Part shown: one piece after another, positions 29,943 to 47,219 of the stretch | Position numbering within the stretch: the stretch's first letter is position 1 | Layout: every line of letters starts with the position of its first letter | Assembly (NCBI GenBank): GCA_046706365.1 | Contig: JBJKPN010000083.1 | Span: 7,541 to 71,540, forward strand | Length of the DNA stretch: 64,000 nt | Reading direction: 5' to 3' | Source of the DNA: Candidatus Kryptoniota bacterium | GTDB lineage: Bacteria > Bacteroidota > Ignavibacteria > Kryptoniales > JAKASW01 | The notes under the pieces: generated by a model | Seen by the model: only the letters and a program-made list of their open reading frames with translations | What the model was told of the DNA's origin: nothing | Databases searched by the model: none | Position numbers and translations under genes: made by a program

Positions 29943-31295
29943 TCACTGCCGGCGGTCTGTCGCCTTCAAGCCCTCTCTTCTTACTCCTGGCTCCAGCTCC
30001 CTGAGCAGAGACTTGATCGTACGCCCCGTTAACTTCCTGTAGACGAATTCGATTCCGAATGCCAGCCCCACCATTGCGACGAGCACAATTATTTCGGACG
30101 GAGACGACGCCGCTGTCTGGTAAACCAGGATTCCGAGCGCCATCAGGCAGCCGACGACACCGAGAACCGAAATCCAGGCCCGGCTTTCAGTTCTTGTTCT
30201 GAGGCGCACGTTGGATGCATTCACAGCCGCAAAAATAAGAAGAAAGCCCGCACTGCCCATTACCGATATGCTCGAGAGATCGAATAAGTTGCAGATGATA
30301 AGCGTCAGGGCGGAAGTCAACAATAGACCCTCCACAGGCTGCTTCCATACATTCTTCTCGAGTGCTGCGGGCAGTTCTCCGTCCTTGGCGATTATGTAGC
30401 TCACTCGGGAGGCACCGTATAATGTCGCGTTGATGGCCGATCCGGTGGAAAGCATTGCCGCGATTGCTATCAGGACAAAACCGAAGCTGCCGAGGAAGGG
30501 TTTCGCGCTCTCCGCCAGTGCATAGTCTCTCGCGTCTATGATCTTCGCCAGCGGAAGATTACCGACCGTCACACCAGCGACGAGCACGTACAGGAGGATA
30601 ACAAGGATTACCGATGCGTAATAGGCTCGCGGAAGATTCTTCCGATAGTCCCTTACGTCCTGGGCAGCATTGGCTATCAGTTCAAATCCTTCATAGGCAA
30701 GGAAGATGATCATTCCACCGGCGATCATCTGCACGGGATTAACCCATGCGGACGGTTGGAGCCGGGTCGTATCTATGCTCCATAAGCCCGCTACGACAAA
30801 CAGTGTGAGAATAATCAGCTTGAAAGCAACCACCCACTCTTCGGCCTTCCCGACCGCCGTCGCCCCGAGAAGGTTAAGGAAAGTAAAGAGCAGAATTGCG
30901 AGGCTCATTAGTATGTGGCGCCAGAACGGCTGCAGTGCGGCCGGGAAGAACGACGCACCATAGCTGCCGAAAGCGAAAGCATAAAGGGAAAGCATCACTA
31001 TATAACTCAGCATCAGAAGGACATTCAGCCCACCTGTTACGATGCCCTCACCATAAGCCTGATTGAGAAACTCAACTGTTCCGCCCTCGCTTGGAAAAGT
31101 AACGGAGAGTCTTGCGTAGGAATATGCTGTTACTATTGCGACAAGCCCGGCGATGGCGAATGCTATTGGAGTCGCCCCGTGAGCCAGCTCCACCGCGAGC
31201 CCAAGCACGGCGAAGATCCCCCCTCCGACCATCCCGCCTATGCCTATTGAAACGACAGACAGCAATCCGATTTTATTTCCCGGGCTTTCGTCCAT
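29943..31295 (-). CDS. APC-superfamily amino acid/polyamine permease
   Basis: 450 aa and about 12 TM. The N-terminus LLSVVSIGIGGMVGGGIFAVLG and YSYARLSVTFPSEGG are typical of amino-acid permeases. Confidence 0.8.
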   Translation of the reverse strand: MDESPGNKIGLLSVVSIGIGGMVGGGIFAVLGLAVELAHGATPIAFAIAGLVAIVTAYSYARLSVTFPSEGGTVEFLNQAYGEGIVTGGLNVLLMLSYIVMLSLYAFAFGSYGASFFPAALQPFWRHILMSLAILLFTFLNLLGATAVGKAEEWVVAFKLIILTLFVVAGLWSIDTTRLQPSAWVNPVQMIAGGMIIFLAYEGFELIANAAQDVRDYRKNLPRAYYASVILVILLYVLVAGVTVGNLPLAKIIDARDYALAESAKPFLGSFGFVLIAIAAMLSTGSAINATLYGASRVSYIIAKDGELPAALEKNVWKQPVEGLLLTSALTLIICNLFDLSSISVMGSAGFLLIFAAVNASNVRLRTRTESRAWISVLGVVGCLMALGILVYQTAASSPSEIIVLVAMVGLAFGIEFVYRKLTGRTIKSLLRELEPGVRREGLKATDRRQ

Positions 31296-31454
31296 TTATC
31301 TTCCCTCGACCCGGTTAGTGTCAGACAGGTGCACCATGGTATAAGTGAATATAACTCACCGGCATCAGAATTTCTTCCGTGTGCCTTGAATCCGTTTGTA
31401 TTCAAACCACCTGCAGATTTTTGACTATTCAAACACCAGGAGATATATTGTGCC

Positions 31455-32357
31455 GTGTTTACCGGATTTTCTCTCTTGTTTGCGGCCGGGGTGACAGCGG
31501 GCTTCCTTGGTTCGCTGGTCGGCATAGGGGGCGGCGTTATTATCGTGACCGTCCTGACACTCTACTTTCACTACTCAATTCACGTTGCGATTGCTGCCAG
31601 CCTCGTGTGTGTTATGGCGACTTCGATCGCCGCGGCGCTCCGCTACGTCAGGCAACGAATTGCCGACGTCCGCCTGGGAATGTTCCTCGAAATGGCCTCG
31701 ACAACAGGAGCTTTCGCGGGCGCTTTCATCGGCGTCTTGTTGAGTGCCTATGTTCTCAGCTTGATATTCGGAGCTTTCCTCCTGTATACGGCCGCCAGGT
31801 CAATACCGAGAAAGAACAACAGAGGGATCGATGACTATTCCCGAAGCGGGCAAAAGCGGGGGCCGGAAGAGGGACAAGATTCGAACAGGAGTGCGAAGAG
31901 CATACTGGAAGGCGGGAGTTACTACGACAAAGCCCTCAAAGCAAACGTCCATTACCGCCCTTCAGGAACGATAGTCGGTCCGCTGGTAATGTCGCTTGGA
32001 GGATTGGCCTCAGGTTTGCTCGGCATCGGGGGAGGCGTTATCAATGTGGCCGCGATGAACTCCATCATGAAGGTCCCGGTGAAAGTCTCAATAGCTACAA
32101 GCCAATTCATGATAGCAGTTACTGCCGCAACCGGCGCAGTCGTGTATTTTATTGCGGGAGGAGTGAACTTCTACGTTGTTGCGCCGGCCGCCCTCGGCAC
32201 GATGCTGGGTTCGACTCTCGGAAGCCTCTCCATGAACAAGCTGCCGGTAAAAGTTATCAAGACGATTTTTCTCGTACTGCTCGTCTATTTCGGGTATCAA
32301 ATGATTGCAAAGGGAATTCTGATGGGATTTGGATTCAGGCTTCCGGGAATTGTCTGA
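31455..32357 (+). CDS. TSUP-family (TauE/SafE, DUF81) anion transporter, divergent fifth copy
   Basis: 300 aa. GFLGSLVGIGGGVIIV in the first half and GLLGIGGGVINVAAM in the second half (the duplicated 4-TM DUF81 pattern). GTG start. Confidence 0.8.
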   Translation: MFTGFSLLFAAGVTAGFLGSLVGIGGGVIIVTVLTLYFHYSIHVAIAASLVCVMATSIAAALRYVRQRIADVRLGMFLEMASTTGAFAGAFIGVLLSAYVLSLIFGAFLLYTAARSIPRKNNRGIDDYSRSGQKRGPEEGQDSNRSAKSILEGGSYYDKALKANVHYRPSGTIVGPLVMSLGGLASGLLGIGGGVINVAAMNSIMKVPVKVSIATSQFMIAVTAATGAVVYFIAGGVNFYVVAPAALGTMLGSTLGSLSMNKLPVKVIKTIFLVLLVYFGYQMIAKGILMGFGFRLPGIV

Positions 32358-32744
32358 GTGAAACGGACTTTTCCACTAACCCCGACCCCTTCCGCGTGTT
32401 GCCGCTGGAGGATCCGCGCGTCTTACGACCGGTACCTGCCCAACGTGATCGGTTATTTGACATCTCCGATACTCCCTGCCGGTAACCCTTCTCCATATTT
32501 GCGAAACAAGAGAAATACAACCCAACCTCGTTAAGCCTGGCGGCGAATAACAGCTCCCGTTAGAGCCGAAAGTTCACTACTGCAGAGATGTGACCCGATA
32601 ATTTTCATTATTATCGAAACTGCCCCTGTCACCAAAATCTCCCTCTCATCCCACCAAACAGTGAATCAACACCTAGAATACAGAACCCGTTGTGTTCTTT
32701 GTTTCCATTCGCCTCGTTGCTGATTATAAAACGGAATCATTCGC

Positions 32745-33422
32745 GTGAAAAAGGACAACAGGCGTGCATATTTCCCAATTCTCATAGATCTCAGGAGATA
32801 CCCGTGCCTCGTGGTTGGCGGCGGGCGTGTCGCATTGCGAAAGGTAATGTCGCTCCTCGAATTCAATGCTAAGGTGACTGTGGTTGCGCCCAGAATCTGC
32901 AAAGAGCTCGCCCGGCTCTCTGCCGGCGGTCGGATCGACGTTATCAGGACTCCTTATTCCAGGAAGCACATCTCCGGGCACAAGATCGTGTTCAGCGCAA
33001 CTGACAATCGTGAGATAAATGAAGCCGTGAGCCGCGACTGCCGCAATGAGGGTATTCTGATGAACGTTGCGGATGCTCCTGACCTGTGCGATTTCATCAT
33101 GCCGGCCACTTTGAAGCGTGGAGACCTGGTCGTTTCGGTTTCTTCGCAGGGACGGGCTCCATTTTACACTAAGCACACGAAGCGGAAACTCGAAAAAGTC
33201 CTTACGCCTTCCGAGGCCGAGATAACGGAACTGGCAGGTTACTTCAGGAATCGATTACTGTCGAAGGAGAACAGCGATATATCACGGAGGACCAAAGATA
33301 TCGCGATCAGGAAATTCCTCTCAACAGATTGGGTGTCGATCATAGCGGCAGGAGGAAGCAAGAAAGCGCATGAGTTTGCGGATAGACTCCTCAAAGAAGT
33401 GAATAAGCAGAAGGATCTTTAG
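32745..33422 (+). CDS. sirC: Siroheme synthase N-terminal-domain type enzyme (precorrin-2 dehydrogenase / sirohydrochlorin ferrochelatase)
   Basis: 225 aa. YFPILIDLRRYPCLVVGGGRVALRKV Rossmann motif, NVADAPDLCDFIMPA and LVVSVSSQGRAP blocks as in the CysG N-domain, SirC and Met8. GTG start. Confidence 0.85.
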   Translation: MKKDNRRAYFPILIDLRRYPCLVVGGGRVALRKVMSLLEFNAKVTVVAPRICKELARLSAGGRIDVIRTPYSRKHISGHKIVFSATDNREINEAVSRDCRNEGILMNVADAPDLCDFIMPATLKRGDLVVSVSSQGRAPFYTKHTKRKLEKVLTPSEAEITELAGYFRNRLLSKENSDISRRTKDIAIRKFLSTDWVSIIAAGGSKKAHEFADRLLKEVNKQKDL

Positions 33423-33430
33423 GTGCTCAT

Positions 33431-34018
33431 ATGAACGGTTCTTCGCAGCATCTCAAGGCGAAAGTAATATTCTCACTGTCGACGATAATTGTTCTGATCC
33501 TCTGCAGCGGTGCACTCGCCTGGGTGATAACGCAGCGTATCGAGCAGAGCGAGAGGACGACGGACACGGCACACATGTTCAAGGAAGCCGAGCTCCAGCT
33601 GAGAAGAGAGGAGAAGAACCTTTTGATAAGGGGTTATTCGGCGGAGAGATTTCATCGCTGGCAGGAGGCGAAAGGTGAGTTCTATCAAAAGCTCGGAGAG
33701 CTGATCGGGCAGAAGGCGGTCAGCGATGTCGAAATCGCCGAATTCAAGTCGGACAATTCGGAAATGTCCGATGCATACAGGAGTTTCTTCGATGACATCA
33801 AGTCCGGGACACTGACCGAGACGGAGGCAGCGGCATATGACCTGCATTTCAAGACAATCGGCCAGAGGTCTATAGGAAGAATCGACAGCATTCTTGCAAG
33901 GGAAGAAAGTATTTCAAAAGGCATGGATTCGAGGGCAAATCTGTTGACCGCGGTTTTCTTCCTCGTCTTCATAGGGACAACTTCATTTCTGGTCATCAAC
34001 GTACTGAGGAGTCTGTGA
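33431..34018 (+). CDS. Hypothetical two-TM protein with a helical periplasmic (sensor-like) domain and no output domain
   Basis: 195 aa. TM near the N-terminus (VIFSLSTIIVLILCSGALAWVI) and at the extreme C-terminus (LLTAVFFLVFIGTTSFLVINVL). About 130 aa of helix-prone sequence lie between them. The stop overlaps the cobA start (GTGA). Confidence 0.6.
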   Translation: MNGSSQHLKAKVIFSLSTIIVLILCSGALAWVITQRIEQSERTTDTAHMFKEAELQLRREEKNLLIRGYSAERFHRWQEAKGEFYQKLGELIGQKAVSDVEIAEFKSDNSEMSDAYRSFFDDIKSGTLTETEAAAYDLHFKTIGQRSIGRIDSILAREESISKGMDSRANLLTAVFFLVFIGTTSFLVINVLRSL

Positions 34019-35331
34019 CAGTGAAGTACCGTAAAGGAAGAGTGTATTTGGTGGGGGCCGGTCCCGGCGATCCCGGGCTGATCACCGTGAAAGGCCTCGA
34101 AAAGCTGAAACAGGCGGATGCAGTGGTCTACGACAGGCTGGTAAACGACGACTTGCTTTGCTATTGCCGGGAAGATTGCGAGAAAATTTTCGTCGGAAAA
34201 GAAAGTGGATTCCACCCTGTCGAGCAGGAACAGATAACCGAAATACTGATACGGAAGTCCGAGCTCGGTTTGGATGTCGTGCGGTTGAAGGGGGGCAACC
34301 CCTTCATATTCGGAAGAGGCTCGGAAGAGGCAATTGCCCTGGCTCGTGCAGGGATCGACTTCGAAATCATCCCGGGAATCACTTCGGGACTGTCGGCGCC
34401 GGTCTACAGCGGTATACCGATAACCCACCGAGGCATGATAACTCAGTGTGTTCTGATTACGGCACATGAATCGCCCGGCAAGCCGGGCACCCAGGTGGAA
34501 TGGGATAAACTGGCGAAGCTGAAGAATTCAACCCTTGTCATTTATATGGGAGCATCCAGAATTGAAAACATCTGCAGAGAGCTGATCAGTCACGGGGCAG
34601 ACCCGTCAACTCCTGCGGCAGTCATTGAAAACGGCACCCTTCCCAGTCAGCGAACGATCACTGCGAGGCTCGACAATATCGCCGATGAATTCAAGGCGAA
34701 CGGTTTCCATGCTCCGGCAATAATAATGATCAGCCCGACCGTAGCCATGAGGAATGAGATATCCTGGTACGAAAACAAGCCGCTGTTCGGGAAGAGGATT
34801 GCACTTGTCGGGAACAGGAATCAGCTAGAATTGCTGAGTAGTATGGTTTACGACCTCGGCGGAGAGCCGCTGCGGATTCAACTGTCGAATCCGGATTCAC
34901 TACGCACCCTGTTCCACGGCGGCGTAGAGAGCGAGGAGGAGATCTTTTGCGCAAACGACGAATTCCCTTCAAACGGCCCTCGCTACCCGTATGAAGGTTT
35001 GAATGATAACCAACTCCCGCTGGTTTCAGTGCAGAGAACGGCGGATCAATTATACGAGGAACCCCGTGCAGACATAATCGAAGATCTGTGCGAAAACGGT
35101 GCTGATGCGTTTGTATTTGCCTCCTCAAAGGCGGCAGAGAGCTTCTTCGATACTTTGGGACGACCAAAAGGAACGAAGATGATCGAACATACTGCCGTCG
35201 TGGCGGTGAGCAGGGCCGCTGCAAATTTATTGGCCGAGAGCGGCTTGCGCGCGATCAGATACCCCTCGGACTGCACCGCGGGGGCCCTTCACGATTTGCT
35301 TCTGAACCTTTTTTCCAATACTCAGGAATGA
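34015..35331 (+). CDS. cobA/hemD: Uroporphyrinogen-III C-methyltransferase fused to a HemD-like (uroporphyrinogen-III synthase) C-terminal region
   Basis: The N-terminus GRVYLVGAGPGDPGLITVKG is the SUMT signature, and VVRLKGGNPFIFGRG is present. About 190 extra C-terminal residues start at KPLFGKRIALVGNRN and resemble HemD. Confidence 0.8.
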   Translation: MTVKYRKGRVYLVGAGPGDPGLITVKGLEKLKQADAVVYDRLVNDDLLCYCREDCEKIFVGKESGFHPVEQEQITEILIRKSELGLDVVRLKGGNPFIFGRGSEEAIALARAGIDFEIIPGITSGLSAPVYSGIPITHRGMITQCVLITAHESPGKPGTQVEWDKLAKLKNSTLVIYMGASRIENICRELISHGADPSTPAAVIENGTLPSQRTITARLDNIADEFKANGFHAPAIIMISPTVAMRNEISWYENKPLFGKRIALVGNRNQLELLSSMVYDLGGEPLRIQLSNPDSLRTLFHGGVESEEEIFCANDEFPSNGPRYPYEGLNDNQLPLVSVQRTADQLYEEPRADIIEDLCENGADAFVFASSKAAESFFDTLGRPKGTKMIEHTAVVAVSRAAANLLAESGLRAIRYPSDCTAGALHDLLLNLFSNTQE

Positions 35332-36407
35332 ACGTATTCAGCATCTACCTGCCAGCAGCGGGTATTCACTTCAATGCTCTCCTGTTGCTCCTGATCGGAT
35401 TCTGCGTCGGTGTAATCGGAGGGTTCTTTGGAGTGGGAGGCGGTTGGATAATCACTCCCGCACTCAACATTTTCGGATTTCATATGGCGTTCGCGATCGG
35501 GACGGGGCTGTCCGATATATTCGGACAGTCACTCGGGGCGATACGCAAACACAATCGAATGGGCAATGTCGACTGGAAGCTCGGATCATTTTCGATTGTC
35601 GCCTCGCTCATCGGATTCGAAGCGGGTTCCCGAATCGTGATGGCGCTCGAAAGAGCCGGCGATGTCGGAACAATTGTCCGGTGGTGTTACGTCGTATTCC
35701 TGGCGGGCCTCGGCGCCTTCATGTTCTATGACTATTTCGTTTTGCACGGCCGACAACTTGAACGCATCGAGAAAGGACTGACTGAGGCAGGCACTTCTGC
35801 AGACGGGACATCCGGCCCGGCCAGCGTCGCGAAGAAACTTCATAACATCAAGCTCGCTCCCATGATCTCCTTCCCGGATTCAAATATCGAGAAGGTTTCG
35901 CTTTGGGTAATTATCGCAATTTTCCTCGGCACGGGACTCCTCTCGGGTGTACTCGGGATCGGAGGAGGTTTCATAATACTTCCGGCGCTGGTTTACCTGA
36001 TAGGCGTCCCCACGGTTATAGCCGTTGGCACCACCCTTATGACAGTGCTTGCAACCGCTGCGTTCGGATGTTTCTCGTATGCACTTGACGGAAAAGTGGA
36101 AATGCTTGCCGCCGTACTGATGCTCCTCGGTGCATCTATCGGAGCCCAGATCGGGGCAACCGCCATCAAGTTCATCAAAGGTTACGGCATCAGGCTGCTA
36201 TTCGCGATAATGATCGTCTTCACGAGTTTCTCCGTCATAACGGAGCAGTTCTACAAGATGACTCTGGAATCGATATTCCGCGTGTTCTCAGGGATCATCC
36301 TGGTCGGGACGGCATTGGCCATGACTGTGACGATAATCTCGAAGCTGGTAACCGAATTCAGGAAAGAGAACGCGGGCAAGTCGGGAATCACAGACAGGGC
36401 TTCATAA
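35328..36407 (+). CDS. TSUP-family (TauE/SafE, DUF81) membrane protein, array copy 1
   Basis: 359 aa. Duplicated DUF81 GxGGG motifs. The ATG overlaps the cobA/hemD stop (ATGA). Confidence 0.85.
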   Translation: MNVFSIYLPAAGIHFNALLLLLIGFCVGVIGGFFGVGGGWIITPALNIFGFHMAFAIGTGLSDIFGQSLGAIRKHNRMGNVDWKLGSFSIVASLIGFEAGSRIVMALERAGDVGTIVRWCYVVFLAGLGAFMFYDYFVLHGRQLERIEKGLTEAGTSADGTSGPASVAKKLHNIKLAPMISFPDSNIEKVSLWVIIAIFLGTGLLSGVLGIGGGFIILPALVYLIGVPTVIAVGTTLMTVLATAAFGCFSYALDGKVEMLAAVLMLLGASIGAQIGATAIKFIKGYGIRLLFAIMIVFTSFSVITEQFYKMTLESIFRVFSGIILVGTALAMTVTIISKLVTEFRKENAGKSGITDRAS

Positions 36408-36423
36408 AAAGCAGAGTGGGATT

Positions 36424-37461
36424 GTGAGCATAATTAACATTCATCTGCCGGTAGCGGGGATCGAGTTTAGTGCGGTCCTACTGATACTCATCGGTTTCTG
36501 CGTCGGAGTACTCGGCGGATTCTTCGGAGTTGGTGGAGGATGGATGATAACTCCGGCTCTGAATATTTTCGGTTTTCATATGGCATTCGCGATCGGCACT
36601 CCTCTGGCGGATATCTTCGGACAATCTATCGGAGCCGTAAGGAAGCACCACAAGATGGGAAATATCGACTGGAAACTGGGGCTGATTTCCATCACTACCT
36701 CCATTATCGGTGTGGAGATTGGCTCGAGAGTGATAATCGCCCTCGAGAAGGAGGGAGATGTTGGGTTAATCGTGAGGTGGTCATACATCTTTTTGCTCCT
36801 GGTTCTCGGCGCATACATGCTCTACGACTATTTCGTGATTCATCCGAGACAGTTGACTATTGAAGGCAGCGGGCAATTGCCGGGCACAACGAGGTTTGCG
36901 GCCCGCTTGCAAAGAATTACTATACCTCCCATGCTCTCCCTGCCGACTTCCGGAATAGACGGGGTTTCGCTTTGGATCATCCTATTTGTTTTCCTGATCA
37001 CAGGTTTTCTCTCCGGGTTCATGGGTGTTGGAGGCGGCTTCATTATCCTCCCTGTACTCGTATACCTTATCGGCCTTCCCACCACTATTGCCGTCGGGAC
37101 GAGCCTGGTCACAGTTCTGTTCACCGCAGCGTATGGGTGCTTCACCTACGCCATAAAAGGGCGGGTCGAGATCATCGCGGCATTCATTATGCTGCTCGGC
37201 GCATCGGTCGGCGCCCAGGTCGGTGCAACTGCGATTAGATATATCAAAGGATACGGCATACGGCTCCTTTTTGCCACGATGATAATCCTTGCGGGCTTTT
37301 CCATCATAACTGAACAATTCTACAAAACCACGGGTAAGCCGTTGTTCCAGACCCTTGCCGGCATCGTCCTCATGGGCACGGCGGTGGCAATGTCTGCTCT
37401 CATCATTGTCAGGCTGGTGAGAGAATCCAGAAGAGAGCGGTCGACAGCGGAGTCTGCATGA
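36424..37461 (+). CDS. TSUP-family membrane protein, array copy 2
   Basis: 345 aa. Same conserved blocks as copy 1. GTG start 16 nt after copy 1. Confidence 0.85.
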   Translation: MSIINIHLPVAGIEFSAVLLILIGFCVGVLGGFFGVGGGWMITPALNIFGFHMAFAIGTPLADIFGQSIGAVRKHHKMGNIDWKLGLISITTSIIGVEIGSRVIIALEKEGDVGLIVRWSYIFLLLVLGAYMLYDYFVIHPRQLTIEGSGQLPGTTRFAARLQRITIPPMLSLPTSGIDGVSLWIILFVFLITGFLSGFMGVGGGFIILPVLVYLIGLPTTIAVGTSLVTVLFTAAYGCFTYAIKGRVEIIAAFIMLLGASVGAQVGATAIRYIKGYGIRLLFATMIILAGFSIITEQFYKTTGKPLFQTLAGIVLMGTAVAMSALIIVRLVRESRRERSTAESA

Positions 37462-37494
37462 CAAACCCGATTGAATTTCAAGACGACTTGTCCT

Positions 37495-38562
37495 ATGAGC
37501 ATTTTTGATATTCGTTTGCCCGTTGCAGGAATTGAATTCAGCGCTTTGCTGCTGATACTTATCGGGTTTTGTGTCGGCGTGCTCGGCGGGTTCTTTGGTG
37601 TCGGCGGAGGGTGGATTGTGACCCCGGCGCTGAACATTTTTGGTTTCCACATGGCGTTCGCTATCGGGACCGATCTGGCCAACATTTTCGGTCAATCAAT
37701 CGGTGCAGTGAAGAAACACCAGAAGATGGGGAACATCGACTGGAAACTCGGTTCCATTTCCATAATCACATCCGTTATCGGTCTCGAAATGGGCTCCGAT
37801 GTGGTTATTGCGCTCGAGAAAGCCGGAGATATAGGCATCATCATAAGATGGTGCTACATGTTCATGTTAAGCGTGCTGGGGTGCTACATGCTGTACGACT
37901 ACTTCGTCCTTCGAAAGAGGGCCAGGAAAGACAGCGGCACAGCGTCTGAAGACGGGGACGCGCTCAATACGGGCAGCGTCGAGAATCGAAGCAAGGTTTC
38001 GAAGAGGCTTCACAAATTGAATATACCGCCGATGATCTCGTTCCCTTCCTCGGGAATCGAGGGAGTCTCACTCTGGATCATACTTCTCATCTTTCTCTTT
38101 ACCGGATTCATGTCCGGTTTCATGGGAGTTGGGGGTGGGTTCATCATCATGCCGGCCCTGGTCTACCTCATAGGTCTCCCGACGGCAGTTGCGGTCGGGA
38201 CGAGCCTGATAACGGTGCTGTTCAGCGGAGCCTACGGGTGCTTCACCTACGCTATGAAGGGACGCGTGGAAGTAATTGCCGCGTTCATAATGCTGATCGG
38301 CGCTTCCATAGGAGCCCAGATCGGCGCGACGGCAGTCAGGTATGTTGAAGGATACGGGATCAGAATACTTTTTTCGCTGATGATTCTGCTCGCGGCCGTT
38401 TCGGTCGCTGCGGAGCAGCTGTACAAGATCACCGGAAGGGCGCTCTTTCAATCCACCGCCGGGATAGTGCTGATGGGAACCGCCGTGGCAGTATCGGCTG
38501 CGATAATCGGCAAGCTGGTCGTGAAATCAAGGAAAGAAGCAAAAGACAGGGCAACACACTAA
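37495..38562 (+). CDS. TSUP-family membrane protein, array copy 3
   Basis: ATG 37495 (MSIFDIRLPVAGIEF...) aligns with the N-termini of the other copies. The track ORF starts at TTG 37471. Confidence 0.85.
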   Translation: MSIFDIRLPVAGIEFSALLLILIGFCVGVLGGFFGVGGGWIVTPALNIFGFHMAFAIGTDLANIFGQSIGAVKKHQKMGNIDWKLGSISIITSVIGLEMGSDVVIALEKAGDIGIIIRWCYMFMLSVLGCYMLYDYFVLRKRARKDSGTASEDGDALNTGSVENRSKVSKRLHKLNIPPMISFPSSGIEGVSLWIILLIFLFTGFMSGFMGVGGGFIIMPALVYLIGLPTAVAVGTSLITVLFSGAYGCFTYAMKGRVEVIAAFIMLIGASIGAQIGATAVRYVEGYGIRILFSLMILLAAVSVAAEQLYKITGRALFQSTAGIVLMGTAVAVSAAIIGKLVVKSRKEAKDRATH

Positions 38563-38583
38563 ATTCACTAACAGGGCTGAAGC

Positions 38584-39636
38584 ATGAATCTCTTCGACAT
38601 CTACTTACCGATCGCAGGAATAGAGTTCAATGTTCTGTTGCTCATTCTGATCGGGTTCTGCGTTGGAGTACTCGGCGGGTTTTTCGGAGTCGGCGGAGGT
38701 TGGATTGTCACTCCCGCTCTCAACATCTTCGGATTCCATATGGCATACGCAATCGGAACTGATCTGGCCAATATCTTCGGGCAGTCCATAGGTGCCACCA
38801 AGAAACATCACAAGATGGGAAATATCGACTGGAAACTCGGTTCCATCTCGATCGTCGCATCGATCGTAGGTCTCGAACTCGGCTCACAGCTCGTGATAAG
38901 GCTCGAGCACGCGGGCGACGTCGGATCTGTAGTCAGGTGGTGCTACCTGTTCCTCATGTTCGGACTCAGCACATTGATGTTTCGCGATTATTACAAGTCG
39001 CATCCGAGGCAGAAGCACGGCGCGACAGCGTCCGGGAGGGATAATTACCCGGGGCCGCGGAAGGGCGGGAAAACGCTTGCCGAAAGACTCCACAGCATAA
39101 ACATTCCTCCGATGATATCGTTTCCGACATCGGACATTCAATCGGTTTCCCTGTGGACTGTCATGTTCATATTTGCGGTGACCGGCTTTCTTTCCGGGTT
39201 CCTGGGGGTCGGAGGAGGATTCATTAGAATGCCGGCTCTCGTTTACCTCATAGGAGTGCCGACAGTAATCGCAGTGGGGACCGACCTGATGACGGTTTTG
39301 ATCACAGGTGCGTACGGCTGCTTCACCTACGCGATGAAAGGAAGAGTTGAATTCATCGCAGCCTTTTTCATGCTGATCGGCGCTTCGATCGGCGCCCAAA
39401 TCGGGGCAACGGCCGTCAAATACGTGAAAGGATACGGGATCAGGCTGCTCTTCGCAATAATGATTGCGTTTGCAGGATGCTCGATAGCACTTGAGCAGCT
39501 CTACAAAATGACCGGTGAAGAAGTCCTGGGTACGGCAGCGGGACTGGTTCTCATGCTGACTGCTGTAACGCTGACTTCTATTATTATTTTAAGGCTCACG
39601 GTTGAAGCCCGTAAAGAGAGGAAGATGAGAGGCTGA
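38584..39636 (+). CDS. TSUP-family membrane protein, array copy 4
   Basis: 350 aa. MNLFDIYLPIAGIEFNVLLLILIGFCVGVLGGFFGVGGGW... Confidence 0.85.
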   Translation: MNLFDIYLPIAGIEFNVLLLILIGFCVGVLGGFFGVGGGWIVTPALNIFGFHMAYAIGTDLANIFGQSIGATKKHHKMGNIDWKLGSISIVASIVGLELGSQLVIRLEHAGDVGSVVRWCYLFLMFGLSTLMFRDYYKSHPRQKHGATASGRDNYPGPRKGGKTLAERLHSINIPPMISFPTSDIQSVSLWTVMFIFAVTGFLSGFLGVGGGFIRMPALVYLIGVPTVIAVGTDLMTVLITGAYGCFTYAMKGRVEFIAAFFMLIGASIGAQIGATAVKYVKGYGIRLLFAIMIAFAGCSIALEQLYKMTGEEVLGTAAGLVLMLTAVTLTSIIILRLTVEARKERKMRG

Positions 39637-39715
39637 AATGGATTCAGAAGAGTCAAGAGATATTCATACATTAGAAAACACCAAAGCCAACAACAGGCTT
39701 CGGAAGGAGCGGACC

Positions 39716-40039
39716 ATGTCAATCAAGAGGACGGTTTCCATAGTGGCGTTTTCTTTCGTGCTGGTATGCGCCATGCCTTACGCAGAAAGATTGTGTGCCA
39801 GCGCGTACGCGAGCGAGATCGGAGGCAAGAGCGAATCGTCGCTTCAGAAGAGGATAGACACAAAGAACATGACGGGAGTCGACCTGCTGATCGCCAACCT
39901 GTACAACGATGACAGATTAATGTACGCAGTCATGGTAACGCTGGTCATGGCCGGGCTCGGCACAACCCTGGCCTTTCTGACCGATCTCGTCCTGAAGATG
40001 CTGGGCGTCGAGGTAACGCGGATTTCTCATCGAGAGTGA
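39716..40039 (+). CDS. Small hypothetical protein: signal peptide plus a single C-terminal TM helix
   Basis: 107 aa counted from ATG 39716, which has an AAGGAG site 6 nt upstream. MSIKRTVSIVAFSFVLVCAMPYA is signal-like. The C-terminal hydrophobic helix is YAVMVTLVMAGLGTTLAFLTDLVL. The track ORF starts at 39638. Confidence 0.55.
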   Translation: MSIKRTVSIVAFSFVLVCAMPYAERLCASAYASEIGGKSESSLQKRIDTKNMTGVDLLIANLYNDDRLMYAVMVTLVMAGLGTTLAFLTDLVLKMLGVEVTRISHRE

Positions 40040-40162
40040 ACAGATGACCCTCATTGCGGCCGTGCCGTCAGGCATCAGAAAAGGGCGTCCCCGCAGATCT
40101 CACCGGGAAGCCCGCACTACTTCCGATGAATACCGCGGTTCAGGCCGGACGGGCAAAGGCGA

Positions 40163-41704
40163 ATGAAAAAAGTCAAGTCCCTGAGTATATCCACACGTAT
40201 TTCCCTGCTGCTGGGATTGATCATCCTTGTTACTATGGGCACGTTCTCGATTTTCAGCCTCGTGAAACAGGAACAAGATTCCGTGGACTCTCTGAGCCGC
40301 AGTACTCTTTTGCTCAGTCAGACTACCGAGAAGATACTTAGACTCAGCATGTTGAAAAACCGGCGCGACGAAATTTCCATGGCGATAAAGAGCATCGTCG
40401 GAGAAGAGGGGATCCAATCCGTAAGGATTCTCAACCATAACGGTGTTATCAAGTTCTCCTCCAGGCAATCGGAAATCGACGAACATATCTCGAGAACAAA
40501 TCAGCTTTGCTCCAACTGCCACGTTGAAAACGACACCGCCATGATCCACCCCGTCAGTGGTTTTTACAGCTATCACTTCAACCACAAGAACGATATGATT
40601 TACAGTTCCCTTCCAATCTATAACTCACGAAGCTGCTATACGGGGGACTGTCATGCGACCGGGGCGAACGAGGCGTCGGTCGCACCGCCTGACTTGACGG
40701 CCCGAGCCGTCCACGATTCGTCGCAGACCATACTCGGATTCATAGAGATAGAAGTGTCCGCGAAAGAGATAATGTCCAACATCGACAGGACCCGTTCGGA
40801 GCTCATCCTGCTCACTGTACTAATAGCTCTCCTTGCGTCGACCGTCGCTTACTTTTCCATACGACGACTCGTCGGGAATCCCGTCAGGAAGCTTGTCGAG
40901 GGAACGAAGAGAGTCGCACAAGGAGATTTCGGCAGCGAGATTCCTTCCGGCGAAGCTGAAATAGGAATCCTCGCGGATTCGTTCAACACGATGCAGAGGC
41001 AGCTCCTTGCCACCCAATCGCAGTTGATTGAATCGGAGAAACTCGCTTCGGTCGGCAAACTGGCAGACGAGATCGCAAGCGAAATAAACAATCCCCTGAC
41101 AGGGATAATAGTCTATTCGGAAAGCCTGATCGAAGAATCGGAACCCGGGACACATGTCAGGGAAGATTTCGAAGTGATTCTTCAGGAAGCGCTCAAGATA
41201 AGGGAAAGCGTCAGAAACATCCTGTCGCTTGCGAGGAAGGAAAAACCGATCTTCGTGCCCGTCGAACTCGACGGCATAGTCAATCACGCAGTCTCGATTC
41301 TGAAGAAGCTCTCGAATTTCAGGAACATCAGGATAGTTACGGCCATTCCCCGGGTATTCCCGAAAGTGTCTGCGGATCCGGGACTCCTGCAACAGGTTTT
41401 CCTCAACCTGTTTCTTGTCTTCGCGGACAACATGCGGACCGGTGGAATACTGAGGGTTTCTGCTTCGCATCTCGAGCAGGAAGGAGCAGTGGAGATAAGG
41501 CTTTCAGCTACCGGTGGGGAGATATCCTGGCATATTATGGATGCCTTGTCTGAACAGGGTGCCGTCGACGATGCAGGCCACATCGAAAAGTCAAGGATCA
41601 GTCTTTCAGTTTGCCGGGATATCGTCGCGCTTCACAGGGGAAGAATTTACGCAAGCGTAGAATCGGAAGCGGAGCCCTCCGTGGTTATAGAGTTGCCTGC
41701 GTAA
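40163..41704 (+). CDS. HAMP-containing sensor histidine-kinase-like protein. The periplasmic domain carries CxxCH and Cx4CH motifs. The kinase core is degenerate (probable pseudokinase)
   Basis: 513 aa. TM1 at aa 12-33 and TM2 at aa 213-233. CSNCH at 40508-40522 and CYTGDCH at 40634-40654. HAMP after TM2. The H-box reads LASVGKLADEIASEINNPL, with Ser (AGC 41078-41080) where His is expected. N-box QVFLNLFLVFADNM, G1 LSATGGEI and G2 KSRISLSV all lack the consensus N, D and G residues. Confidence 0.8.
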   Translation: MKKVKSLSISTRISLLLGLIILVTMGTFSIFSLVKQEQDSVDSLSRSTLLLSQTTEKILRLSMLKNRRDEISMAIKSIVGEEGIQSVRILNHNGVIKFSSRQSEIDEHISRTNQLCSNCHVENDTAMIHPVSGFYSYHFNHKNDMIYSSLPIYNSRSCYTGDCHATGANEASVAPPDLTARAVHDSSQTILGFIEIEVSAKEIMSNIDRTRSELILLTVLIALLASTVAYFSIRRLVGNPVRKLVEGTKRVAQGDFGSEIPSGEAEIGILADSFNTMQRQLLATQSQLIESEKLASVGKLADEIASEINNPLTGIIVYSESLIEESEPGTHVREDFEVILQEALKIRESVRNILSLARKEKPIFVPVELDGIVNHAVSILKKLSNFRNIRIVTAIPRVFPKVSADPGLLQQVFLNLFLVFADNMRTGGILRVSASHLEQEGAVEIRLSATGGEISWHIMDALSEQGAVDDAGHIEKSRISLSVCRDIVALHRGRIYASVESEAEPSVVIELPA

Positions 41705-41705
41705 C

Positions 41706-42101
41706 ATGGCTGAAAAGGTAAAAATACTCGCCATCGACGGAGAGGATATAGTCCTCAGGTCGATAGCTAAGGCGCTCAGGCCGGACGAGAATACCGAGTA
41801 CGCAGTGACAACCGCAAACAATGCGATCGAAGGCCTTAAATTGGTGCGGGGCAATGTGTTTGAGGTGATATTCGTCGATTCCGTTCTGGCCGGCATGAAT
41901 ACCGAGGAAGCATTACGGAGAATCAAGAACACCTGCCCATCCGCCTCGGTTATTTTAATGTCCGGCTATTCGTCCCAACCCTCTGGCGTCGACCGGGACT
42001 TCGGAGATGCGGATGGCCTGCTGTCCAAGCCTTTTTCGGGTTCGGAGATTAGGTCCCTGATATCACGTATATTAAATGAGCGCAAAGGTCGAAGTGAATA
42101 G
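41706..42101 (+). CDS. Stand-alone response-regulator receiver domain
   Basis: 131 aa. KILAIDGEDIV (DD pair reduced to DG), IFVDSVLAGM (D58 acceptor), VILMSG (S86), LSKPF (K108). No output domain. Confidence 0.8.
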   Translation: MAEKVKILAIDGEDIVLRSIAKALRPDENTEYAVTTANNAIEGLKLVRGNVFEVIFVDSVLAGMNTEEALRRIKNTCPSASVILMSGYSSQPSGVDRDFGDADGLLSKPFSGSEIRSLISRILNERKGRSE

Positions 42102-42148
42102 AGTGAAGATTCGCATCCAGAACCCTGCGCGCAAGCACGAGAGAGTTC

Positions 42149-44800
42149 GTGACGATATTCAAGAATATATTCAGCCGAAAAAGAGCCGAACCGGTTTCGT
42201 TCAAGGATAAGCTCCATCACTTCCAGCGGCTTCTATTTTCCAACGACGAGGCCCTGAAACTAATGGGGAGTCTCAGCGAAATCATAGTTTCGGGAAAGCC
42301 ATTCTCAAAAGGGGACATATTTCCATTCTATTCCGATATACTGACAAATATCGAACAGGTGACCCGGCACCTTTCAGCCATGTGCGGCGGCAGATACAGG
42401 ACGCTTGCCTCCCGGGTTAAAAAGATTAGGGCAGACTGCGATAGCCAACTCGCGCCCGCTCCGTTTTGTCAGGAAAGGTGGGCGTGTGAAAAGGCCAATT
42501 GTGACGGGTGTGAAAAGCGGTCATATCCTGTCCAGGACTCGCCATACTCTTACCGCGTGGACGAGATAACTTACAACCACACACGTGAAGTCGGCGGCAA
42601 GATGAGCCGGCTTTGCGAGGTACATAACCGGTTGGATATTCCCGTCCCGGACGGATTTTGCCTCACGGCCAAGTGTTTCGAAGACTTCCTATCGCAGGAT
42701 GAATTGTATTCAAAGATTGACGAAGCTATATCGTCCATCGATTTCAACGATAATGCCCAGGTCCAGGAGGCGAGCCGGATCATCCAGGCGCTCATCGTGG
42801 CCTCTCCTATTCCGCCCATCATCGAAAGCACCGTTCTCGAAGAATACGATCGCCTTTCGGCCAGGCGCGGTGAGACTCTTGTAGCCGTCAGGTCAAGTGC
42901 CGTCGGGGAGGACGACCTGCATTTTTCGTTTGCCGGATTGCATTATACCGCACTCAATGTAAGCAGGGCTAATCTGGTCGACGCCTGCTTCGAAGTAATG
43001 ATCTCGAAATACCTGCCGCAGTCGCTGGTCTACCGATATATGATGGGCCTCAGAGATGTCGATATGCCTATGAGTATCGGCTGTATGCAGATGCTGGACT
43101 CCGAAGTCAGCGGGGTTCTCTTCACGAAGGACCCTCTGAGAAACAGGGATGAAATAATCATCCAGGCGGTAAGAGGTCTCGGGACTAAAGTGGTTGACGG
43201 AAGCGTGGAGGCACAGGAGTTCATAGTGGAACATTCTGAAAACTGCAGGATGCTTTCGTTCAAGCCCGGCAACCAGGATTATATGGCGACAGCCCGCCCC
43301 ACAGACGGACTGTACGACGAGCAGGTACCCGCCGAATTGAGACGCAAGCCATGTTTGGATGGGAACCAAATCAGGCAGATCGTGGGATACGCTCTCAGGA
43401 TAGAAGAATACTACGGTTCGCCGCAGGATATCGAATGGGCTATCGACGAGGACGGCAAAGTTTACATTCTGCAGTGCAGGCCTCTCGCGGTTTCAGAAGA
43501 GGCAGGCAACCACGAAGAAACAGGACCTCTATCGGAATCAACAGATGTGGAGCGTACTGCATTAATCGACAAGGGCGAATGCGCCAGTCCGGGAATCGGG
43601 TCGGGCAAGGTTTTCCTTTCAAACAGGTCAAGGGATCTTGTGAATTTCCCAACAGGGGGCGTTCTGGTTGTCAGAAAGACCTCACCGGAGTTGACCAGAG
43701 TTCTCCACAAAGCTGCAGGACTTATCGCGGATGTAGGAAACACGACAGGCCATCTTTCAATCATTGCCCGGGAATTGAAAATACCTGTACTTGTGAATAC
43801 GGGCGATGCTACTTCCCGCCTTTCGAACGACATGCCGATAACTGTCGACGCCGGCGCCCACAAGGTCTACCTCGGACTCGAAACACCTGCCCGGCCAGCG
43901 GATTCAGGAAATGTCAATTCGAGCAGCTTCATGCGGAGCCCGATGCACAGAGTATGGAAAAACATAGCCGAGTCGATAATACCTCTCAACCTGACCGATC
44001 CCGACTCTCCTGAATTCTCGCCGGACCACTGCAGGACATTGCACGATGTGACGAGGTTTGCACACGAGTATGCAATGAGGGAGATGTTCTCGCTTTACGA
44101 AGCCGCTGAGGATCAAGACAGGCAGGCATTCCCATTGAGGTTCCCCGTCCCCCTGGACGTCTACGTCATCGACCTCGGAAACGGACTTCAGAAAATAGAA
44201 GGACGGAAGTTCATCACCCCTGAAGACATCACATCCGAACCGTTCAGCTCACTAATCAAAGGGATGACGGCACCCGGCGTCAAGTGGGCGGGGCCGCTCC
44301 CGATCGACCTCAAAGGCTTTACAAACCTTCTGATGGCAAATATCGTCGATGCCGGAAGAAGCGATAGGGCTCTCGGCGGCAGGAGTTACGCGATCATCTC
44401 AGACTGCTACCTGAATTTCTCTTCGAGACTCGGATATCATTTCTCGCGCCTTGACGCTTACGCGAGCGAAGAGATCAACAATAACTATATCAACTTCGAC
44501 TTCCGGGGCGGCGCCGCGGATCCTTTGAGAAGAGTGAGAAGGGCCAGAGTCATAGCAAGGATTCTCGAGCGCTCCAATTTCTCTGTCACCCTGCAGAACG
44601 ACAATGTCCTTGCAACCATAAGGAAGATCTCCGCTTCGGCTATCTACGAGCTGCTGCACGAGATCGGAAGATTGATGGGTGCGGTACGAAATGCCGACGT
44701 TACGCTGATTACTGACGACAGCATAGAACAATTCGTCAACGCTTTTCTCAGCGGAGACCCGGCTCCCGCTATGCGGTTCACCGAAAGGCCTCCTGGCTGA
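42149..44800 (+). CDS. PpsA-like enzyme: Cys-rich N-terminal extension, PPDK_N ATP-grasp domain, PEP-utilizer swivel phosphohistidine domain, about 310-aa C-terminal domain of unknown function
   Basis: 883 aa. GGKMSRLCEV..IPVPDGFCLT, VAVRSSAVGEDDLHFSFAGLHYTALNV, QDIEWAIDEDGKVYILQCRPL (ATP-grasp). LIADVGNTTGHLSIIARELKIPVLV (swivel His). I recognise no PEP-utilizers_C TIM-barrel motifs in the last about 310 aa. N-terminal motif CQERWACEKANCDGCEK. GTG start. Confidence 0.75.
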   Translation: MTIFKNIFSRKRAEPVSFKDKLHHFQRLLFSNDEALKLMGSLSEIIVSGKPFSKGDIFPFYSDILTNIEQVTRHLSAMCGGRYRTLASRVKKIRADCDSQLAPAPFCQERWACEKANCDGCEKRSYPVQDSPYSYRVDEITYNHTREVGGKMSRLCEVHNRLDIPVPDGFCLTAKCFEDFLSQDELYSKIDEAISSIDFNDNAQVQEASRIIQALIVASPIPPIIESTVLEEYDRLSARRGETLVAVRSSAVGEDDLHFSFAGLHYTALNVSRANLVDACFEVMISKYLPQSLVYRYMMGLRDVDMPMSIGCMQMLDSEVSGVLFTKDPLRNRDEIIIQAVRGLGTKVVDGSVEAQEFIVEHSENCRMLSFKPGNQDYMATARPTDGLYDEQVPAELRRKPCLDGNQIRQIVGYALRIEEYYGSPQDIEWAIDEDGKVYILQCRPLAVSEEAGNHEETGPLSESTDVERTALIDKGECASPGIGSGKVFLSNRSRDLVNFPTGGVLVVRKTSPELTRVLHKAAGLIADVGNTTGHLSIIARELKIPVLVNTGDATSRLSNDMPITVDAGAHKVYLGLETPARPADSGNVNSSSFMRSPMHRVWKNIAESIIPLNLTDPDSPEFSPDHCRTLHDVTRFAHEYAMREMFSLYEAAEDQDRQAFPLRFPVPLDVYVIDLGNGLQKIEGRKFITPEDITSEPFSSLIKGMTAPGVKWAGPLPIDLKGFTNLLMANIVDAGRSDRALGGRSYAIISDCYLNFSSRLGYHFSRLDAYASEEINNNYINFDFRGGAADPLRRVRRARVIARILERSNFSVTLQNDNVLATIRKISASAIYELLHEIGRLMGAVRNADVTLITDDSIEQFVNAFLSGDPAPAMRFTERPPG

Positions 44801-44843
44801 CTAACCGGCCCGAATACAACCGGACATTTTTTCTTCACCATCC

Positions 44844-45983
44844 CTACGGGACCTCGCACTGCAATTGAACCTCGAGAATGTCTCCTGCCCGATTGTCCCT
44901 CCCTCTCCAAATGAGATAGTTGCCCTGCACTCTGACATTTGAAGCGATCAGATACGTAGCTCCGAAAACATAGTCCGTCGAAATCATGTCACGCATGCTC
45001 ACATCGGGATTATAAGTGTCGAAGCGGGCGGCGATCTGCAAGTCTCTCCCGGCCACATAATAGGCGGCCTGCAAGTACCCTCCCCTGCGACTTATCGCCC
45101 CGTCATTTCCGCCGATATACTCCCCGGAGATTTCGAGTGGAGAGTCAGCATAGTCAAACTCGAGTCCGAAGCGAGTCCTCCTGCCGCTGACAGGAGGGCT
45201 GCCCCACACATCAAAACCGTCGTAGTAGGAAACCCCGACATGTATCTCCCGGACGGGTTGGATCACAATTCTCCCGCAAAAATCCTTTGCGTCGTTCCTG
45301 TCCGGCACGTTTATGCCGGAGCCGTTGAAGACACCTGCGGCATATTCCAGCGAGGACGTGCTGTCGCAGCCGGCAAGTCTTCCGCCGACTTGCACTCCGA
45401 CATCCCGCCCGGACTGATTCCCGGCAACGTCGCCACTTCGGGCCACCAAAGACTCCACAACCTGGGAGCGGTCTATGAAATCGAGTCTGGCCGAAGACAT
45501 CAGGTTTTCCCTGGAAAAGGGAATCTTAAATTGGCCGGCCTTCACACGCAAGAACCGAAACGGCGAATAGTCGATATAAGCGTCGAGCAATCTGGGGGAT
45601 GCGGCAAAATCGGCCTGAAAGAAGTAGGACCATGGCTCCGTCACCCTGCCGGCCAGGCTAAACCTCATTCGCCTTATGTCTGCGCTGCTGATCCGGGACG
45701 TATCACCGTCCGATAGTTGATACCTGAGTTGGACATAACCGCCGAAGTGAGGAAGCAAGAGTGGCGCAGAAGATGGTGGGTTCCTTTTGTCTGTAGTGTC
45801 ACTGAAGGGCGAATCAACTTGAGGGTCCCCCGCTTTGCAACCGACCTCCAGTCCGGAGAGCTGAGAAAAGTCCGGCGCAAGGCGGGCGGGATTTGCCCCT
45901 GCACCGGCAGTTAAGAATGAGATTGCAACCGGGATGATCAGGTTAATTCGCATCGGATGATCCGGGAAGGAGATCGCGGGCAA
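44844..45983 (-). CDS. Phosphate-selective porin O/P (OprO/OprP) family outer-membrane anion porin
   Basis: FFQADFAASPRLLDAYIDYSPFRFLRVKAGQFKIPFSRENLMSSARLDFIDRS is a typical Porin_O_P block. The signal peptide begins at the internal Met (ATG 45953, MRINLIIPVAISFLTAGAGA), which is the likelier start. Confidence 0.8.
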   Translation of the reverse strand: MPAISFPDHPMRINLIIPVAISFLTAGAGANPARLAPDFSQLSGLEVGCKAGDPQVDSPFSDTTDKRNPPSSAPLLLPHFGGYVQLRYQLSDGDTSRISSADIRRMRFSLAGRVTEPWSYFFQADFAASPRLLDAYIDYSPFRFLRVKAGQFKIPFSRENLMSSARLDFIDRSQVVESLVARSGDVAGNQSGRDVGVQVGGRLAGCDSTSSLEYAAGVFNGSGINVPDRNDAKDFCGRIVIQPVREIHVGVSYYDGFDVWGSPPVSGRRTRFGLEFDYADSPLEISGEYIGGNDGAISRRGGYLQAAYYVAGRDLQIAARFDTYNPDVSMRDMISTDYVFGATYLIASNVRVQGNYLIWRGRDNRAGDILEVQLQCEVP

Positions 45984-46021
45984 GTCGAGCTGATTTCCTG
46001 CCGAAACGGATGACTGATGGG

Positions 46022-47206: not shown

Positions 47207-47219
47207 AGTGTTTGTGCGT

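Follow-up and report, generated by a model that had tools for sequence, protein, structure and literature searches.

Why should one genome keep four adjacent genes for the same kind of membrane permease directly behind its siroheme genes? The question is raised by a 64,000-nucleotide stretch of DNA from a Candidatus Kryptoniota bacterium (contig JBJKPN010000083.1, positions 7,541 to 71,540 of the forward strand), referred to here as the window, in which four tandem genes of the TSUP (TauE/SafE) family, designated T1 to T4, fill positions 35328-39636. We found that the four copies are old paralogues under strong purifying selection, that they belong to an ordered array kept throughout the clade, and that the array is part of a larger gene module recurring across phyla. 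With about even confidence, we regard T1-T4 as regulated sulfur-oxyanion permeases, partly redundant isoforms, for the adjacent Sat-AprAB-QmoABC-DsrMKJOP pathway; their substrate and direction of transport are what we infer.

The four genes are consecutive and on the same strand, as an earlier note on this DNA had read them, and their products match Pfam TauE (PF01925) over the full length of the model (149-162 bits against a cutoff of 32.6; model positions 1-236/237). In the following list, the ratio of nonsynonymous to synonymous substitution rates (dN/dS) refers to the orthologue in L006, the nearest related genome, a Kryptoniota metagenome-assembled genome (MAG); these ratios are approximate, as dS against L006 is itself near saturation.

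35328-36407, plus strand: TSUP copy 1 (T1), 359 aa, orthologue group B; PF01925 E 3e-43; dN/dS 0.057
36424-37461, plus strand: TSUP copy 2 (T2), 345 aa, orthologue group C; PF01925 E 3e-45; dN/dS 0.034
37495-38562, plus strand: TSUP copy 3 (T3), 355 aa, orthologue group D; PF01925 E 2e-46; dN/dS 0.065
38584-39636, plus strand: TSUP copy 4 (T4), 350 aa, orthologue group E; PF01925 E 3e-47; dN/dS 0.051
31455-32357, plus strand: fifth TSUP (T5), 25-29% identical to T1-T4; PF01925 E 3e-51

The open reading frame of T3 opens with TTG at 37471 (363 aa to 38562), and its true start is most likely the ATG at 37495, judging from the gene call in an independent Logan assembly, L001 (355 aa), and from the N-termini of orthologues. 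T5, which the earlier note had already set apart as a distant fifth member, indeed lies outside the conserved array, being remote in sequence and without synteny in most relatives.

Pairwise, T1-T4 share 61-70% of their residues, 62-67% of their nucleotides and 36-40% of their third codon positions, and their synonymous differences are saturated (proportion of synonymous differences, pS, 0.75-0.79 by the Nei-Gojobori method). Each copy has its own orthologue in L006 (82-88% identity), with dN/dS values of 0.03-0.07 that indicate strong purifying selection, and more than 40 genomes contain orthologues of T4 (73-88% identity). Because synonymous sites are saturated, third positions are only 36-40% identical and dN/dS is low, T1-T4 are old, individually maintained paralogues; the proposal that they do not stem from a recent amplification is thus confirmed, and the long identical blocks on which it drew are evident in the alignment of the four copies. 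The identical four-copy array is present in L001, which excludes the collapsed or expanded assembly that the earlier note had allowed for, as does the divergence of the copies.

The array is a property of the clade. A scan with a single protein as query, one genome per species, returned 58 loci, close relatives only, all of them in MAGs labelled Ignavibacteria, Kryptoniota or 'Bacteroidetes' except for three weak Zhongshania matches. The conserved order is SirC-like, 195-aa unknown protein, CobA, [TSUP]n, DVU0150-like, histidine kinase, response regulator and PEP-synthase-like dikinase, often followed by qmoC, a CxxCxxCC gene and aprA on the opposite strand. Counted in the 44 loci with both array ends present, n was 2 in 6 loci, 3 in 20, 4 in 8, 5 in 8 and 6 in 2. 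A single-copy array was found in none of these 44 Ignavibacteria/Kryptoniota loci. The expectation that TSUP members normally occur as single genes therefore did not hold, given 2-6 copies clade-wide and nine TSUP genes in Desulfovibrio vulgaris (PMC5840216).

Clustering and a neighbour-joining tree of 180 sequences resolved six orthologue groups, A to F, five of them monophyletic and the sixth, group D, a paraphyletic grade. Identity is 76-88% within groups and 59-72% between them. Of 54 arrays, 53 keep the group order A-B-C-D-E-F. B-C-D-E is the subset of the window; elsewhere the subsets include D-E, E-F, C-D, B-C, A-D-E, C-D-E, D-E-F and A-B-D-E, and the complete A-B-C-D-E-F set is present in L045. 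The pattern of subsets is that of an ancient ordered array followed by differential loss.

Of 350 positions, 134 are at least 95% conserved when all six groups are taken together, glycine-rich motifs included, and GVGGG is invariant at aa 35-39 and aa 208-212; strict group specificity is confined to 5 of the 350. With so few, the idea of clearly different substrate specificities among the paralogues was dropped. As the transmembrane core is almost invariant, the paralogues probably have one kind of substrate in common and would differ in kinetics, regulation or pairing. Variation inside orthologue groups is seen in the central linker (about aa 146-163) and at the extreme C-terminus. The central loops had been described as unrelated among the four copies, and they do vary between copies; since they vary within orthologue groups as well, the loop is a weakly constrained linker rather than a mark of specialisation.

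An AlphaFold2 model of T4 (pLDDT 92.2, pTM 0.90) consists of two structural repeats (hairpin and helices at 5-146 and 177-310), each beginning with a short beta-hairpin (5-16; 177-189), together with a disordered Lys/Arg-rich linker and one additional C-terminal helix (313-349). The internal duplication with glycine-rich G-x-G-G-G motifs, a trait of the TSUP family (TCDB 2.A.102), is present in both the model and the alignment. Neither sequence comparison nor Foldseek returned a solved structure resembling T4 (no hit at E <= 1e-3; best TM-score 0.19). T1-T4 belong to a distinct 'long' TSUP subfamily of about 350 aa.

The genes preceding the array belong to siroheme synthesis, with one gene of unassigned family between them.

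32745-33422, plus strand: SirC/CysG-N-like precorrin-2 dehydrogenase (NAD_binding_7), first gene of the conserved cluster; PF13241 E 4e-33
33431-34018, plus strand: 195-aa protein of unknown family with two transmembrane segments, between the sirC-like gene and cobA
34015-35331, plus strand: CobA, uroporphyrinogen-III C-methyltransferase with a partial HemD-like C-terminal part; PF00590 E 4e-50, PF02602 partial

Nearly all related loci have the SirC-like gene 5' of the array and, at its own position, an orthologue of the 195-aa protein (44-75% identity). The latter has a helical middle part between its two transmembrane segments and matched no Pfam or NCBIfam model. The CobA of the window measures 438 aa with its partial HemD (HEM4) end, and the orthologues in L002-L005 measure 278-293 aa and comprise the methylase domain only. 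The stop codon of cobA/hemD overlaps the start of T1 in an ATGA, as had been noticed. The array had been called welded to the siroheme operon on this ground; the synteny is conserved, but the overlap is particular to this genome, with gaps of 83-145 bp in relatives.

The description of the array was correct as far as it went and overlooked a larger module of partner genes, which continues downstream of T4.

39638-40039, plus strand: putative DVU0150-family small membrane protein, signal peptide and one transmembrane helix; precomputed PF28216 hit
40163-41704, plus strand: sensor histidine kinase (HAMP-HisKA-HATPase by Pfam), periplasmic domain with CxxCH and Cx4CH
41706-42101, plus strand: stand-alone response-regulator receiver domain (PF00072), position conserved
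42149-44800, plus strand: PEP-synthase-like dikinase, PPDK_N ATP-grasp, swivelling His domain and an uncharacterised C-terminal domain of about 300 aa

One DVU0150-like gene comes after the last TSUP in all complete arrays. Its orthologues consist of a signal peptide, a short periplasmic part, one transmembrane helix and a conserved tail, and since they measure 100-107 aa, the true start in the window is probably M27 (nt 39716). A single-sequence search with this protein returned 5 proteins and a profile search 215; among the 120 matches listed, all were of the Ignavibacteria type and none was from Desulfovibrio. The periplasmic motifs of the kinase, CSNCH (CxxCH) and CYTGDCH (Cx4CH), are kept in 48 of 48 and 41 of 48 orthologues, respectively, which suggests a covalently bound haem-c sensor domain. 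The receiver (41706-42101) has no output domain. The dikinase-like protein matches PpsA partially in NCBIfam. Its conserved C-terminal domain gave no Pfam hit and no PDB sequence hit, and a single-sequence AlphaFold2 model of this domain was unusable (pLDDT 36.5).

The plus-strand cluster spans 32745-44800, with tiny intergenic gaps or overlaps through most of its length. No convincing internal terminator was found within it, a promoter and terminator scan yielded nothing decisive inside the array, and an Rfam scan of 31000-46000 found no riboswitch or other RNA family.

Facing the cluster are the genes of the pathway that the permeases would serve.

46022-63992, minus strand: convergent dissimilatory sulfur supercluster (Pfam, NCBIfam)

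Its order is porin, qmoC, CxxCxxCC gene, aprA, aprB, sat, qmoB, qmoA, Cytidylate_kin2, PNDR-rhodanese, dsrP, dsrO, dsrJ, dsrK, dsrM. The products AprA, AprB and DsrM/K/J/O/P score above their NCBIfam cutoffs, and QmoC, at 239 bits, lies below its cutoff of 300. In 25 of the 44 complete loci, qmoC, the CxxCxxCC gene and aprA fall inside the fetched flank, and the locus in the window likewise adjoins qmoC/aprA. Among the loci examined, the array does not occur mainly in genomes without dissimilatory sulfur genes. Linking it with the dissimilatory sulfur machinery is reasonable in view of the siroheme synteny, the adjoining qmoC/aprA genes in these 25 loci and the sulfur genes of the window.

Several further features of the window may be recorded here. 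Within the supercluster, qmoC is split from qmoAB by aprBA and sat; the CxxCxxCC gene (PF03692; 47220-48044, minus strand) is kept between qmoC and aprA in this clade; and a gene for a four-helix-bundle protein (TIGR02436; 61051-61464, minus strand) is inserted between dsrJ and dsrK in dsrMKJOP. The Cytidylate_kin2 gene (PF13189; 55957-56826, minus strand) lies between qmoA and the PNDR-rhodanese gene, and such genes recur beside TSUP/dikinase-like modules (L074, L113, L134, L143, L145 and many Ignavibacteria loci). Farther upstream are a cysD gene (assimilatory sulfate adenylyltransferase subunit) adjoining an L-rhamnose catabolism cluster at 1288-9795 (rhaA, FGGY kinase, aldolase-dehydrogenase fusion, AraC regulator, DeoC-type aldolase), an arylsulfotransferase with a type IX secretion system C-terminal sorting domain (20083-22416, plus strand) and a 2127-aa repeat-rich secreted protein (22719-29102, minus strand); the last two agree with a host of the FCB group, Ignavibacteria/Kryptoniota-like.

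Does the module exist beyond this clade? Distant contexts were obtained from representative proteins and look-ups of their contigs. With T4 as query, 1.84 billion representative proteins were searched, and 236 clusters matched at E <= 1e-30. Among their representatives, P0251 (46% identical to T4) carries KFGNVDY, identical to the translation of the DVU0149 quantitative PCR primer published in PMC4265775, and its Desulfovibrio-like contig L064 (65% GC) matches this primer at 21 of 22 bases. L064 encodes a DVU0150-family protein, a TauE (361 aa), a DUF4881 protein, a 112-aa open reading frame and a PPDK_N/PEP-utilizers protein (862 aa), which is the layout to be expected of the DVU0150-DVU0146 operon. 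The proteins compare as follows.

T4 against the L064 TauE (361 aa): 43% identical, full length
Dikinase-like protein of the window against the L064 PPDK_N/PEP-utilizers protein (862 aa): 31% identical over 740 aa, unannotated C-terminal domain included, E 5e-125
DVU0150-like protein of the window against the L064 DVU0150-family protein (102 aa): 24% identical, E 8e-5 (BLASTP)

In L070, a response regulator, a DVU0150-like protein, a TauE and a dikinase-like protein are encoded together, the single TSUP being 59% identical to T4. L066, a Desulfomonile MAG, carries a DVU0150-like protein, one TSUP (TauE) and a HATPase protein, and the DVU0150-like/TSUP pairing was seen weakly in L068.

Metagenomes were also scanned with a query alignment of three dikinase-like proteins, which yielded at least 562 relatives; the best 80 of these are full-length matches at 29-38% identity, with one close relative at 62%. 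Neighbours were counted in the 36 dikinase-like loci with at least 1.5 kb on each side. A long-type TSUP lies within 3 kb of the dikinase-like gene in 19 of the 36 (6 of the 19 also with a DVU0150-like gene), and a receiver-domain gene does so in 13. With the outer parts of the same loci as internal control, TSUP density was 0.87 per 10 kb within 3 kb of the dikinase-like gene versus 0.30 farther out, which corresponds to 28 TSUP genes observed against 9.6 expected, an approximately 3-fold enrichment (Poisson P ~1e-6).

A second flavour of the module was also seen (L110, L122, L128), with a shorter TSUP, an Alph_Pro_TM (PF09608) membrane protein, Usp proteins, a histidine kinase, a response regulator and a dikinase-like protein. 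This flavour, together with L068, may be of the type of the 'nitrate cluster' of D. vulgaris Hildenborough (DvH).

We propose that T1-T4 would serve the adjacent Sat-AprAB-QmoABC-DsrMKJOP pathway by passing sulfur oxyanions (sulfate, and/or sulfite or thiosulfate) through the cytoplasmic membrane. The DVU0150-like single-pass protein would act as an accessory subunit, and the kinase, receiver and dikinase genes would control when the permeases are made or active. Such a control circuit is suggested because the receiver has no output domain and because, in DvH, mutants in the dikinase-like and receiver genes phenocopy the permease mutant. The B-C-D-E set is a subset of an ancient ordered set of up to six paralogues kept by sulfate/sulfite reducers of the Ignavibacteria/Kryptoniota type; Ignavibacteria dsr genomes have been classed as such reducers (PMC6018805).

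Four considerations support this proposal. The characterised or proposed members of the family move sulfite, sulfonates or sulfate, and TSUPs have already been put forward as candidate sulfate transporters of sulfate reducers by Marietou et al. (PMC5840216), who found most candidate sulfate transporter genes far from the pathway genes. Few proteins of the cluster, which also provides the cofactor of sulfite reductase, are as conserved as T1-T4. The cluster adjoins the pathway genes across the clade. Finally, the related modules of Desulfovibrio react to the availability of sulfate and mediate the entry of anions. As to the former, PMC4265775, citing Walker 2009 and Plugge 2010, reports DVU0145-0150 as up in sulfate-free syntrophy and down on a shift to sulfate respiration, and DVU0150-0146 are the predicted regulon of the sigma54 activator DVU0151, labelled 'transmembrane transport' (PMC4641369). 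As to the latter, transposon mutants in the nitrate-cluster TauE (DVU0251), response regulator (DVU0247) and dikinase-like protein (DVU0246) grow unimpeded in 100 mM nitrate, and G20 mutants are mildly sick on thiosulfate, from which the authors proposed non-specific nitrate entry via a leaky thiosulfate transporter (PMC4001038). An uptake system induced by sulfate limitation would fit these expression data and nitrate/thiosulfate phenotypes best.

Several points weigh against the proposal. The fetched flanks of 19 of the 44 array loci contain no apr/qmo genes, and sulfur genes lie near only a minority of the distant modules sampled (L071, L099, L134, L147). The product of 39638-40039 scores 42.2 bits (E 8.5e-11) against the NCBIfam DVU0150 model NF040783, below its cutoff of 70. 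The dikinase-like enzyme beside the permease has no explanation yet. Induction in DvH syntrophy could reflect something besides sulfate limitation; the nitrate-cluster experiments concern a sister module with a shorter TSUP and other accessory proteins; and the partner of the Dissulfuribacter TauE, considered below, may be of the Alph_Pro_TM type rather than the DVU0150 type. We found no characterised close relative of T1-T4 in the papers searched, and substrate and direction are judged from context.

The absence of single-copy arrays among the 44 loci invites a different reading, in which several different copies are needed together, the paralogues and the DVU0150-like protein forming an obligate hetero-oligomeric transporter. 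Arrays of the smallest size always combine groups that adjoin each other in the A-F order (D-E, E-F, C-D, B-C), the paralogues have long been kept distinct under strong purifying selection, and there is one accessory gene per array, all of which agrees with such a complex. We nevertheless think this reading rather unlikely. The composition of the arrays is so variable that a fixed stoichiometric T1-T4 complex cannot be a requirement, each DVU0150-like gene of the distant relatives L066 and L070 is accompanied by one TSUP, and the mere 5 strictly group-specific positions offer no obvious complementary interface signature. In particular, the possible hetero-oligomer of the earlier note, taken as a fixed complex of all four copies, is unlikely, as genomes keep different subsets and distant relatives use a single TSUP; pairwise heteromers may still form, given the absence of single-copy arrays in the 44 loci.

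A serious alternative, which we also hold to be unlikely, is that sulfite, sulfate or thiosulfate leaves the cell through T1-T4, for export or detoxification, as proposed for TauE/SafE. The name of the Pfam family refers to sulfite exporters. During thiosulfate disproportionation, Dissulfuribacter thermophilus contains more of a TauE/SafE protein and of its neighbour, a 'co-occurring transmembrane protein', and the authors suggest that the two export sulfate or sulfite (PMC13490349); gene content cannot separate reductive-type dsr genomes from disproportionators (PMC6018805). Against this stands the regulation of the homologous DvH cluster, whose induction without sulfate and repression on sulfate addition (PMC4265775) fit uptake better. 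Moreover, loss of the sister-cluster TauE protects from external nitrate and mildly impairs thiosulfate respiration, pointing to inward flux (PMC4001038).

It is very improbable, in our estimate, that the substrate is not a sulfur compound at all, the permeases handling another anion or a small molecule phosphorylated by the dikinase-like enzyme, or serving tetrapyrrole or metal supply, with the closeness of the sulfur genes reflecting only co-regulation or chance clustering in this clade. The most constant partner of the permeases is indeed a PEP-synthase-like dikinase, whose C-terminal domain is uncharacterised and of substrate type, the flanks of most distant modules sampled are without sulfur genes, and the array lies directly 3' of sirC/cobA. 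The siroheme linkage, however, is limited to Ignavibacteria/Kryptoniota, whereas the linkage of TSUP, DVU0150, dikinase and response regulator is general; the identified hosts are sulfur-respiring lineages (Desulfovibrio-like L064, Desulfomonile L066 and Ignavibacteria/Kryptoniota), and the DvH and G20 phenotypes indicate oxyanions (PMC4001038).

An assembly artefact, a recent amplification or a set of decaying duplicates is ruled out by the 30-39% residue differences, the saturated synonymous sites, the four intact frames with their low dN/dS, the identical array in L001 and the orthologous arrays in more than 50 genomes; we give such readings practically no credence.

The proposal of sulfur-oxyanion permeases can be carried further. 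It is a bold and quite unlikely extension that long TSUPs together with the DVU0150-family protein form the main sulfate/sulfite gate in several phyla, in variable heteromers, with the dikinase and receiver as a post-translational switch under the haem-c kinase. If true, a secondary transporter would here be regulated in a new manner, and the DvH 'syntrophy cluster', the 'nitrate cluster' and the disproportionation-induced TauE would all fall under one scheme.

The entry of sulfate and the membrane handling of sulfite and thiosulfate in dissimilatory sulfate reducers are unsettled matters, and here a whole clade keeps a conserved ordered permease set beside siroheme genes and sat/apr/qmo/dsr. 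The TSUP family, the small partner protein (Pfam and NCBIfam models) and the Desulfovibrio clusters are already known, none of them functionally characterised. In the literature, we found no description of ordered 2-6-copy arrays, of the six orthologue groups, or of a siroheme/two-component/dikinase cluster beside apr/qmo/dsr, and nothing that connects the three observations from Desulfovibrio and Dissulfuribacter as one family of modules. The module is met again in Desulfovibrio, which is amenable to genetics and in which sulfate-dependent expression and an anion-entry phenotype are already on record for two related clusters. A vague 'TauE-like' annotation is thereby turned into a concrete hypothesis, testable with DvH mutants, in which T1-T4 are good, as yet unproven, candidates for sulfur-oxyanion transporters of dissimilatory sulfur metabolism, and an uncharacterised dikinase-like family is flagged as a recurrent partner of TSUP permeases.

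Among known systems, the Cupriavidus necator TauE, one of the TauE/SafE exporters of sulfite or organosulfonates, and the TSUP-type sulfate importer 'CysZ' of Corynebacterium glutamicum (PMC5840216) share with T1-T4 the PF01925 family, the 4+4-helix repeats and proposed sulfur-oxyanion substrates. They are single-gene permeases of about 250-300 aa in assimilatory or organosulfonate contexts, and they have neither the opening beta-hairpins and long linker nor the additional C-terminal helix and partner genes of T1-T4. Even to the ordinary TSUP of the window, T5, T1-T4 are only about 25-29% identical.

The nitrate cluster (DVU0251-0245 / Dde_0597-0605) comprises a TauE, a hypothetical protein, a PtxB-like protein, a histidine kinase, a receiver-only response regulator, a PPDK_N/mobile-domain protein and a phosphatase (PMC4001038). 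A TauE, an accessory membrane protein, a histidine kinase, a receiver-only response regulator and a PPDK_N dikinase-like protein are all present in the window too, a likeness at the level of architecture and of the metagenome analogues (L110, L122, L128, with Alph_Pro_TM and Usp). For the nitrate cluster, genetics indicates that permease, response regulator and dikinase-like gene act jointly in letting anions in. The nitrate cluster differs in its TSUP of 320 aa, its single permease copy, its 195-aa hypothetical protein, its PtxB-like periplasmic protein and its phosphatase, and no DVU0150-family protein is listed for it; no protein with a phosphonate-binding or phosphatase domain was found in 31000-46000.

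The DVU0150-DVU0145 operon was compared through the Desulfovibrio-like contig L064 rather than the DvH genome. It has one TSUP per small-protein gene, and the small gene lies upstream, in the window downstream. It also has DUF4881 lipoprotein genes (DVU0148-type; DUF4881 is present in L064), with no DUF4881 hit among the proteins of the window cluster, and it is under sigma54 control, without siroheme genes and without a histidine kinase with haem motifs. The data for it concern expression only. What the two have in common is a small DVU0150-like protein beside a long TSUP, a dikinase-like protein and a stand-alone response regulator: positions 35328-44800 of the window hold all four, the putative DVU0150-family protein, the long TSUP, the PPDK_N/PEP-utilizers dikinase-like protein and the receiver protein.

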